Positions 57,701 through 60,700 of a DNA stretch of 64,000 nt are shown one piece after another. Positions within the stretch are counted from its first letter, which is position 1. Every line of letters begins with the position of its first letter. Origin of the DNA: Escherichia coli (GTDB lineage Bacteria > Pseudomonadota > Gammaproteobacteria > Enterobacterales > Enterobacteriaceae); assembly GCF_003334355.1 (NCBI RefSeq), contig NZ_QOWP01000001.1. One strand, 5' to 3'. The position numbers were made by a program.

Positions 57701-60700
57701 CGCTCCTCTTCTGCCAGGCTCAGGCGCTCTATTTTTCCCTGATAGCGCAGCATCACATGGTCGCGATTGATTTCCTCAATCACCGCGTTGTGAGAACCAA
57801 GCCGTTCCCCCTGCAAATAGACCTGCTGTTTGCCACCTTCTTCAATAACCGCGCCGGGTCTGGCACCAAAGGCGATCCCACGCAACACCACATTAAGACG
57901 CGTTTCTGCCACAGGTGCAGGTTCGGGTTGTTTTACCGGCGTGGCGACGGGCTGATATTTGCCAAACCAGTTTTGCTGGCTGATTAATTGCACGTCATTT
58001 TTATCGAACGTTTTTGCATCCGCACGGGGCGGTTTATTCGCCGATGGGGAAACAGCCATATATTCCGCAGAAAAAGAGAAATAGCGCCAGAGTGAATGCG
58101 CCACTTTTGCAGAAATAATAAGCAGCATCAGCCAGAACATCCCGCGTACAATTTTTCGCAGATGCTCTTTGTCTGTATTAAGAGATTGTCTCTGGTTAAG
58201 AGTGTGACGAATTTTTGTCAGCCATTGAATGAGATAAATTCGTGCGTCACGAAAAACAACCCGCGCCAATTTATATCTACCCGACGTTATGCTTTAACTA
58301 TTCCACAGGTAGTGCGATCCAGTTTCCGCTGATACTGGTTACCTGTACGTGTATCATTAATCGTTATGCTGTAATTAATTCCCTCAGTGAGCATTAATTT
58401 CACCGTTGGGTCAGTGCACATTTGTCGTTGATAGCTGGTTAAAAAGGCGTCAGGCGTCTGCGTGGTCTGAGTCCCCGCTTCGCTGATAATGGTCATTTTT
58501 AACGTCGTGCCGCTACTTTGTGCCAGCACTAAGGTATATCCCGCAGATTTAATCGGCAGGTTTTGGCTGATATTTTGCGCCTGTTTTTTCGCCAGTAAAC
58601 TGGCGTTTTCATTATGGCTGGCACAGCCACTTAATAATCCTGTAACGCTCAACAATAGCGATATTAATACCCTCCCTGGCATCTGTTTTATCGACATGGT
58701 AAATAATCTCTAAGGTTATTAATAAGAGTTAAAATGTCACTTTGATAATGACGTGGTTATCATTAAAACAATGCCTGTAGATAAAGTGTTGCTATACCGC
58801 CCAGACTTAAACACGGTCCAAAAGGCAGTGTGGTTGATCCTCTTTTTGTAATAACGGCATATATCAGGCCGCAGCATGAGGCGATTAAAGCAACATTGGG
58901 CAGCGACAATGCCCCCACCCAGCCACCTAACGCGGCGAAAAGTAATACATCGCCCATGCCTAATGCTTCTTTACGCAGAACTATTCCGGCTATCCAACGC
59001 AGAGAGTAAAAAGTGATAAATCCCACCAGGACGCCGGTGACTGCATCTTGTAGCGTGAGCGGACTCTGCTGCGCCCATGCCGCAATCAGTCCTGTCCACA
59101 ATACGCCCTGAGTAAAAACATCGGGCAGCCATTGGTGATCGAGGTCGATGACGCTCGCGGCAATCAGCCAGGCGGATAATATCATCACCGCCAGCCCCCA
59201 TCCACTTTCTGGCCAGACCAGACTCGCCAGCAAAAAAGCAAGTGCTGTCAATAACTCCACCAGCGGATAACGCTTGCTGATTTTCGCCTGACAGTCGCGG
59301 CAGCGCCCTTTGAGCATCAGCCAGGAGAGCAGCGGAATATTGTCACGTATCCGGATGGTCTGCTGACAATGTGGGCAGTGCGAACGCGGTAGCGCAAGGC
59401 TTATTTTTGACTGCACACTCGGCATTTCACCATGAAACTCCGCCATTTGTTGGCGCAGCATGATGGGGTAACGCCAAATCACCACATTCAAAAAACTGCC
59501 GATGATCAATCCTCCGACGGTTGCCAGTATGGGCATCGCCGCGGGGTATTGCTGAAAAACATCAAAAAGCATGGTTAAAGGTTGTTTGTTGTAACTTGCT
59601 GGATGCGGCGTAAAACGCCTTATCCGTCCTACGGGTGTCTGCCAGCGCAAATAATCGCGGCTTTCCCCGTCTGTAGGCCCGATAAGCAGGCGCATCGGGC
59701 AAATGTGTTAACCCGGTGCGCCTTATTTCATGCCGGATGCGGCGCGAGCGCCTTATCCGGCCTACGGGCTTACTCGGCAGACATCTTATGCTCGGTAACC
59801 TGATTAATGGTTTCCGGTCCCTGTTCCGGTTTCGGCAGATCGAGTGACGCGAGCGTGTTGTAAGCCGACTGGCTCACACCGCCCTCGAAGCTCATCTCGC
59901 TCGCCCCCGGCAGCTGGTAAGCATTCGCGCCCGGATTCCATTTCTTAAAGAACTCCGAAAGATCCGTCTGGGCGACCCAGGAGGCACACAGCATCAGCGT
60001 GTCCGCTGCGTTACCGTTGGATTCAGCACAGTAATTCTTGCCGCCAAACTTGTCATTGCTGACCTCATCGCCGCGTGCTTTACGATGCATCAACTGGAAC
60101 AGGTTCCAGCCTTTCATCCCTTCACGCTCGCTGTAAAACTCTGGCAGAGGAGTGCCATCTGGATACCATTTCTTGATATCAAAGTTTTTCTCTGCCCATT
60201 CCTTCAGCTGTGCGTACATCAGCAGACGGTCACCCGCACCGCCGCGCGCCCATGCCTGACCGTTGCTTTCCTCCAGATATTCCGGTGCGACGGTAATATC
60301 GTCAGCGACACGGTTCATCTTGCCGAGATAACGATCCTGCATGTACAGCGCCAGCACGTTGTTAGCGACTTCAGTTGCACCCGGTACAGTCAACGGCGTT
60401 TCTGCGGCGTTATGACCGACTTCATGCCAGATCAGCCAGTCGTTCAGCGGCGTCGTCGGCAGCGTGGTGCTGTTCGGCGAGAAGCTGCTGTTCATTACCG
60501 GATAACCCGAATGCGCATCACCGATGGAGATCTGCACATCGTTGGCGAAACGATGTTTGTGGCCCGGCAAGTTTTTATAGGTAAACATCCGGTGCTTACC
60601 GTCTTCGCTATCACGGCCGTAGAAGTCATTCATCGAGCTGGCAAAGGTATCCAGATCGTTAGCGAATTGCTCCAGTCCGCCAGTGTAATTGCTGGCATTC

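Follow-up and report, generated by a model that had tools for sequence, protein, structure and literature searches.

A three-unit REP cluster between sslE and pppA in the type II secretion operon of Escherichia coli: anatomy, strain variation and possible action on the transcript

The junction between sslE and pppA

We analysed a window of 64,000 nucleotides from Escherichia coli (RefSeq assembly GCF_003334355.1, contig NZ_QOWP01000001.1), the minus strand of which carries, in order, sslE, pppA, gspS2 and gspC, D, E, F, G, H, I, J, K, L and M. The product of sslE is identified as the SslE lipoprotein metalloprotease by its match to the NCBIfam model NF037973, and pppA encodes a 269-aa prepilin peptidase with the Pfam domains A24_N_bact and Peptidase_A24, which is called PppA in RefSeq genomes. 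SslE is a mucinase and a vaccine candidate. The two genes are separated by a gap of 197 bp (59573-59769), bounded exactly by the stop codon of sslE and the start codon of pppA (Table 1). This gap is the sole long untranslated spacer in the complete sslE-pppA-gspS2-gspC-M operon, a T2SS-beta operon with co-oriented genes and with overlaps or spacers of 1-65 nt at all its other junctions; this layout fits an earlier sequence-only reading of the window, which had placed a REP cluster inside a secretion operon. In ETEC, sslE and 13 downstream genes have been reported as a single polycistronic mRNA, transcribed from an H-NS- and StpA-repressed promoter upstream of sslE (Yang 2007, as cited in PMC5012682), and from that mRNA we infer that the REP cluster is transcribed together with the flanking genes. 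A scan of 59300-60000 found neither a sigma-70-like promoter nor an intrinsic terminator, the latter sought as a GC-rich hairpin followed by a U tract, and the sequence that follows REP-A, AUGAAAUAAGG, does not qualify as such a terminator. The empty scan gives no support to an internal sigma-70 promoter for pppA or to an intrinsic terminator in the gap.

The gap is filled by three REP units that alternate in orientation and span 59598-59765. Read along the transcript, it consists of 8 nt, REP-A, a linker with a half-REP, REP-B, a second linker, REP-C and the pppA leader. The sequence-only reading had described about 170 bp of at least three REP units occupying the whole gap, which proved accurate in extent, unit number and gap limits alike. 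REP-A matches the 34-nt y-type consensus, GCCGGATGCGGCG-N5-GCCTTATCCGGCCTAC, perfectly, with its GTAG at 59765-59762 and its stem at 59761-59732. The first 8 nt past the sslE stop, GCCCGUAG, include this GTAG tetranucleotide, and the stop codon thus lies 4 nt from the GTAG and 8 nt from the stem. A GTAG/CTAC foot is present in all three units (GTAGGCCGG, CGGGCCTAC and GTAGGACGG on the transcript strand), and REP-B belongs to the same class as REPs found elsewhere in the window at 31282-31295 and 7279-7292. Searched across the 64-kb window, the 34-nt REP consensus gave 5 matches at up to 3 mismatches against 0 expected from shuffled sequence, and the 14-nt REP tail gave 16 against 0.94 expected; the REP content of the gap is far above chance. 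Five further REP clusters lie in the window. REP-A alone has a median of 6 megablast matches per E. coli genome.

Table 1. Features of the sslE-pppA junction, listed in the order of transcription.
Feature	Position	Strand	Basis or remark
sslE stop codon, TAA	59772-59770	(-)	SslE model NF037973 (NCBIfam) matches to the last residue
REP-A, y-type, first on transcript	59732-59765	(-)	34/34 match to y consensus
Head-to-head linker, REP-A/REP-B, ~30 nt	59703-59731	(-)	holds the half-REP arm
Half-REP arm	59712-59723	(-)	inverted repeat I4, 12 nt, 92% complementary to the 5' arm (head) of REP-B, 59688-59699
REP-B, inverted (iREP), 28 nt, short z1-like, GCCCGATGCGCCTGCTTATCGGGCCTAC on transcript	59673-59700	(-)	motif searches
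Tail-to-tail linker, REP-B/REP-C, 40 nt	59633-59672	(-)	no IHF consensus
REP-C, y-like, degenerate at foot, GTAGGACGG...CATCCAGC, last on transcript	59598-59632	(-)	motif and inverted-repeat searches
pppA leader, 25 nt, unstructured, CA-rich, G-poor, no Shine-Dalgarno, conserved	59573-59597	(-)	folding, anti-SD duplex, diversity
pppA start codon, ATG	59572-59570	(-)	identical start annotated in RefSeq genomes

Class of the element and its variation among genomes

The units have the hallmarks of REPs, being imperfect palindromes with an internal loop and a GTAG/CTAC foot that are multicopy and wholly extragenic. Under the BIME class definitions of PMC3333891, the gap element reads from its sequence as an atypical BIME composed of a y, a z1-like and a y unit, plus a half-REP; in keeping with that class, it mixes y and z1-like units, and related genomes have 1 to 5 intact REPs at this site. 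The BIME-1 class (RIP/RIB; one y and one z1 in single copy, with an L linker holding an IHF site) was rejected in view of the three REPs, the tandem duplication seen in some strains and a tail-to-tail linker that is unlike the L linker of the BIME-1 at 7210-7292 (linker 7244-7278). With up to 2 mismatches allowed, neither linker of the gap has an IHF consensus, whereas this control BIME-1 has an IHF site at 1 mismatch. The BIME-2 class (y and z2 with a short S linker, in tandem) was likewise rejected, REP-B being 28 nt and z1-like and the linkers ~30 and 40 nt long. Three 36-nt z2 REPs occur elsewhere in the window, at 31233, 35680 and 19985.

An Rfam search of 59300-60000 returned only sub-threshold matches to naRNA4 (REP325, RF02564), which score 35 bits where the family's gathering threshold is 59.5. 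This family, which we take to be the one Rfam family built from REPs, is made from paired REP hairpins, and hence matches the gap weakly; paired REP hairpins are common to both, but naRNA4 sits at a different locus and the gap is not a member. Nothing essential sets the cluster apart from E. coli REP/BIME elements in general, with which it shares 28-35-nt palindromes, the GTAG/CTAC foot, the stem mismatch, alternating orientation, extragenic multicopy occurrence and strain-variable copy number; only the canonical BIME-1 and BIME-2 classes are unmatched. The gap cluster is thus an ordinary element of a known kind. It is 100% identical to the corresponding gap of E. coli K-12 MG1655 and, given this identity, is presumably already in K-12 REP catalogues. 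The RefSeq annotation of MG1655 has no REP feature in the gap, which is uninformative because the copy of the record consulted also lacks a repeat feature expected at 5565-5669. In the literature searched, no publication links yghJ with REPs.

The junction is present in ~3,600 of 5,426 complete E. coli genomes. We surveyed it with the two coding flanks as the sole query and sampled 59 E. coli junctions at even steps down the ranking. Among these the gap takes eight lengths: 326 bp (1 junction), 197 bp (14), 194 bp (1), 163 bp (5), 147 bp (8), 139 bp (11), 129 bp (18) and 121 bp (1), with none below 121 bp. Seventeen sequences were read, which cover every length class and extend to E. albertii and a cryptic Escherichia clade. 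All 17 have an intact REP-A, the sole unit kept throughout. An intact REP-B occurs in the 326-, 197-, 194-, 163- and 155-bp forms, whereas the unit is truncated in those of 147 and 139 bp and collapsed in those of 129 and 121 bp. REP-C is intact only in the 326-, 197- and 194-bp forms and has an internal deletion wherever the gap is 163 bp or shorter. In the 326-bp form (ET350, O55:H7 and Escherichia sp. E1V33) the A+B unit is duplicated in tandem, which makes five REPs. When each length class is given the structure of its sequenced examples, ~27% of the 59 junctions have at least three intact REPs and ~73% have lost or decayed REP-B and REP-C; in ~64%, REP-B is missing or truncated and only REP-A and remnants are left. 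The gap of E. albertii, 197 bp long and with three REPs, is laid out like that of the window, and this arrangement is therefore older than the split of E. coli and E. albertii; the short forms are most simply taken as derived deletions.

Variation also reaches the end of sslE itself. Five of the 17 sequences encode ...PAE* instead of ...SAE* and lack 8 nt past the stop, which in these variants brings the beginning of the REP-A stem to 1 nt past the stop codon. Many strains have GTAT instead of GTAG in REP-A and nonetheless keep the hairpin. Among the sequenced examples, pairwise diversity is 0.022 in the REP-A stems and 0.036 in the pppA leader; at the third codon positions nearby it is 0.183 in sslE and 0.083 in pppA. 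No REP-free orthologous junction was found: a PppA search of genome contigs gave only two genuine orthologues, one from E. albertii and one from Escherichia sp. E1V33, each with REPs at the junction. The other 26 loci encode distantly related prepilin peptidases, and the ones that were inspected have no SslE upstream. The knockout primers used for E. coli W show that this strain has a short gap allele, with a truncated REP-B and a REP-C remnant, and its secretion of SslE is experimentally proven (PMC3707838); a working secretion system therefore does not need three REPs. Judging from the loss of REP-B and REP-C in most strains, much of the REP element is clearly not needed.

RNA structure and the start of pppA

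Folded as the sense strand, REP-A forms an RNA hairpin of -20.9 kcal/mol, the stem of which begins at the 9th nt past the sslE stop. REP-B and REP-C, each folded alone, form hairpins of -12.7 kcal/mol; all three hairpins have an internal loop, and the palindromic form is also borne out by the inverted repeat I3. An alternative hairpin, in which the head of REP-B pairs with the upstream half-REP, reaches -22.9 kcal/mol (z = -3.4), and the gap as a whole folds at -88.2 kcal/mol (z = -4.2). The pppA leader has a fold energy of 0 kcal/mol and is the most C-rich and G-poor stretch near the junction (C/G ratio 2.3). It has no Shine-Dalgarno sequence, its duplex with the anti-SD having an energy of +2.4 kcal/mol versus -7.4 kcal/mol for gspD and gspE. 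Such a weak initiation region of pppA may by itself account for low expression of the machinery genes, with no need for the REPs. A K-12 Term-seq data set contains no 3'-end entries for yghJ, sslE, pppA or yghG, as is expected for an operon silenced by H-NS.

Effects of REPs at other loci give three lines along which the cluster might act. According to PMC12306157, which summarises Newbury 1987, Espeli 2001, Khemici and Carpousis 2004 and Liang, Rudd and Deutscher 2015, REP hairpins are barriers to 3' exonucleases and stabilise upstream mRNA, and BIMEs can act as transcription attenuators. For REPs no more than 15 nt past a stop codon, Liang, Rudd and Deutscher are reported to have found that ribosomes stall and the gene before the REP is translated less. 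REP-A lies within this distance. The same source states that ~11% of predicted K-12 REPs do so.

Possible roles of the cluster and comparable systems

The reading that we favour, with moderate confidence, is that the cluster acts at the RNA level through REP-A, with REP-B and REP-C as dispensable passengers. What the sequences show is the identity, anatomy, hairpin stability and conservation of the units and that promoter, terminator and IHF site are missing; all effects on expression are inferred. On the transcribed operon, the REP-A hairpin would block 3'-to-5' exonucleases; mRNA ends containing only sslE would pile up at REP-A and outlast the pppA-gspM part, and sslE mRNA would come to outnumber machinery mRNA. 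The structured untranslated spacer, followed by the CA-rich leader of pppA with no Shine-Dalgarno sequence, would break translational coupling and allow a partial attenuation of the machinery genes, probably assisted by Rho. This attenuation could only be partial, because PppA and the Gsp proteins (GspC-M) are needed for the secretion of SslE, as found in E. coli W (PMC3707838). With REP-A so close to the stop codon (within 15 nt), termination of sslE translation would also be slowed. The number of REP-B and REP-C units drifts by deletion and tandem duplication.

The two effects predicted for REP-A on SslE are opposed, in that one yields a more stable mRNA and the other a poorer termination of translation. 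A stop-proximal REP-A would imply that SslE is reduced rather than raised, which goes against a simple reading of the junction as a means to more cargo. The sequence-only reading had proposed that at least three REPs stabilise the upstream mRNA and attenuate downstream expression, and could thereby set the ratio of the cargo (sslE) to the machinery (pppA to gspM). The identity and position of the REPs on which it drew hold good, and its reliance on three units does not, since ~73% of the sampled junctions no longer have both REP-B and REP-C in intact form. Upstream stabilisation with downstream attenuation would still be a plausible generic REP effect here, carried by REP-A alone. A tuned three-REP device that sets the cargo/machinery ratio is unlikely, because those ~73% of junctions, strain W among them, have lost it.

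The main rival to action through REP-A is that the REPs are selfish or tolerated passengers, spread and reshuffled by TnpA-REP in a permissive spot, with no meaningful effect on sslE or the gsp genes. We consider this somewhat unlikely, although several features of the junction speak for it: the spread of the 59 sampled junctions over eight gap lengths (121 to 326 bp), the internal deletions of REP-B and REP-C, the tandem duplication of A+B in three genomes and the secretion of SslE by E. coli W with a short allele. Strain-variable copy number of a BIME at one locus is, moreover, a known property of atypical BIMEs and is linked to TnpA-REP (PMC3333891). However, REP-A is intact in 17/17 sequences from three Escherichia species or clades, its stem has a diversity 4- to 8-fold below that of the flanking synonymous sites, and no gap in the sample is shorter than 121 bp. 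A hairpin of -20.9 kcal/mol in a transcribed spacer would, in addition, physically affect exonucleases whether or not it was selected, and in many strains this hairpin is kept with GTAT in place of GTAG, though binding by TnpA-REP needs GTAG (PMC3333891). Thus, the polymorphism favours the passenger view for REP-B and REP-C, and the invariance of REP-A opposes it for that unit. The conservation of REP-A could also stem from homogenisation with other genomic REP copies and not from selection at the site.

A further possibility, which we hold to be unlikely, takes REP-A mainly as a brake on translation, with ribosomes stalling at the sslE stop, followed by mRNA cleavage, tmRNA tagging and a lower yield of SslE. 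The position of the stem, 8 nt past the stop or 1 nt in the second class of sslE 3' ends and never more than 15 nt in the 17 sequences, is what this would predict, and the 15-nt rule has an experimental basis in the work of Liang, Rudd and Deutscher (2015) as cited in PMC12306157. On the other hand, SslE is highly expressed and secreted in some strains with such an arrangement (PMC5012682), and the spacing is not unusual, given the ~11% of K-12 REPs that qualify. A role of the DNA itself seems quite improbable. Here DNA gyrase, IHF or DNA polymerase I would bind or cleave the BIME, which would act as a topological or nucleoid-structuring element in an H-NS-silenced island; BIMEs as a class bind these three proteins (PMC3333891, PMC2817692), and the operon is reported to be under the control of H-NS and StpA (PMC5012682). 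Against this stand the linkers without an IHF consensus at up to 2 mismatches, compared with the 1-mismatch site of the BIME-1 at 7210-7292, and the single intact REP that is left in most strains. Gyrase binding is associated with BIME-2 (y and z2 with a short linker), whereas REP-B is z1-like. Very improbable, finally, is an RNase III processing site, at which a long imperfect duplex of REP-A and REP-B would be cut and the sslE mRNA split from that of pppA-gspM. The minimum-energy structure of the whole gap does pair REP-A with REP-B in preference to the local hairpins, but it has an ensemble frequency of 0.0006, co-transcriptional folding would favour the local REP-A hairpin, and REP-B is missing or truncated in ~64% of the sampled junctions.

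An extension of action through REP-A that we regard as improbable is an evolvable rheostat, in which the invariant REP-A would set a baseline for the stability of sslE mRNA and for termination, and read-through into pppA-gspM would be tuned by the number of downstream REPs, which varies between strains from 1 to 5. If this were true, the gap alleles would help to explain the reported strain differences in production and secretion of SslE among pathogenic E. coli.

Action through REP-A has close counterparts in the malE-malF and hisJ-hisQ operons, where intercistronic REPs provide the classic cases of a stabilised upstream mRNA and of differential expression within an operon (cited in PMC12306157). 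There, too, the hairpins separate a highly expressed first cistron, for an exported protein, from membrane-machinery cistrons of the operon; the effect on expression was measured in those operons, whereas the sslE-pppA junction is known from sequence and has one of its three REPs conserved. With the stop-proximal REPs described by Liang, Rudd and Deutscher (2015; for example nrdAB), as represented in PMC12306157, the junction shares a REP within 15 nt past the stop, and the ribosome stalling, mRNA cleavage and tmRNA tagging belong to those systems. An intercistronic REP/BIME is a textbook feature of E. coli and the copy in this gap is identical to that of K-12, giving it little significance beyond the locus. 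For work on SslE, it means that the junction between cargo and machinery genes varies between strains, in 8 length classes, and never lacks the stop-proximal hairpin. This hairpin is also where constructs for a knockout or fusion at the sslE 3' end are placed, and the junction alleles, the hairpin or such constructs could alter the yield of SslE or cause polarity on the secretion genes.

The sslE of the window differs from those of K-12 and strain OW1E2 in a CAG to TAG (amber) change at 61572-61570, and this genome therefore does not encode a full-length SslE. Its closest complete genome in the collection is no better than 99.4% identical over 3 kb. The amber codon leaves ~1.8 kb of untranslated sslE RNA upstream of the REPs. 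Rho polarity is the established logic for reduced expression downstream of untranslated RNA, and for this reason downstream expression in this strain is more probably limited by the 1.8 kb than by the REPs.

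Variation of REP-A at the sslE 3' end

Two kinds of variation were seen in other genomes in REP-A, the y-type REP nearest the sslE stop codon. In a second class of sslE 3' end, terminating in ...PAE*, 8 nt are absent downstream of the stop codon, and its REP-A is devoid of the GTAG foot, with the stem starting 1 nt after the TAA (comparison loci L004, L008, L009, L038 and L043, from other E. coli genomes). Many strains, and E. albertii as well, instead have GTAT as the foot (L005, L006, L007, L010, L011 and L040-L042), and the hairpin is nonetheless retained. Since binding by the REP-associated transposase TnpA-REP is reported to require GTAG (PMC3333891), these GTAT-foot copies are probably immobile.

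REP/BIME clusters elsewhere in the window and REP annotation of the K-12 record

The window contains a textbook BIME-1/RIP element, which served as a positive control, along with four further REP/BIME clusters (table). The L linker of the BIME-1 carries an IHF-like site (ATTCAATATATTG) with 1 mismatch. A REP-tail-like match within gspK is probably due to chance.

REP-related features and the pppA leader in the window
Feature	Coordinates	Strand	Description
BIME-1/RIP element	7210-7292		y REP, 35-nt L linker, inverted z1 REP
REP/BIME cluster	19897-20043		three units: y, z2-like, y
REP/BIME cluster	31233-31295		
REP/BIME cluster	35632-35693		
REP/BIME cluster	38915-38978		
REP-tail-like match	50079-50092	minus	CTTATCGGGCCGAA, 2 mismatches; within gspK coding region
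pppA leader	59573-59597	minus	AAGUUACAACAAACAACCUUUAACC

The NC_000913.3 annotation in the collection (L001 and L044, K-12 MG1655) was checked in two stretches, the sslE-pppA gap and 5565-5669, where a RIP element would be expected; neither has a REP or repeat_region feature, and the absence of REP annotation in the collection is therefore uninformative.

Coding frames and the pppA leader

Relative to K-12 MG1655 and strain OW1E2, the sslE of the window has a CAG to TAG change that creates an in-frame amber codon (61570-61572, minus strand; ...GTNI*RLYQ...), cutting the 1519-aa SslE protease short after approximately residue 920. This region has no match above 99.4% among the complete E. coli genomes in the collection. 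The gspD of the window is intact (686 aa); the annotation of strain OW1E2 (L002), the genome matching the junction most closely, marks its gspD (1748-3808) as a pseudogene carrying an internal stop.

The pppA leader is unstructured and CA-rich, has no Shine-Dalgarno sequence, and shows good conservation that extends to E. albertii; possible roles are those of an S1-type translation enhancer or of a Rho loading site.
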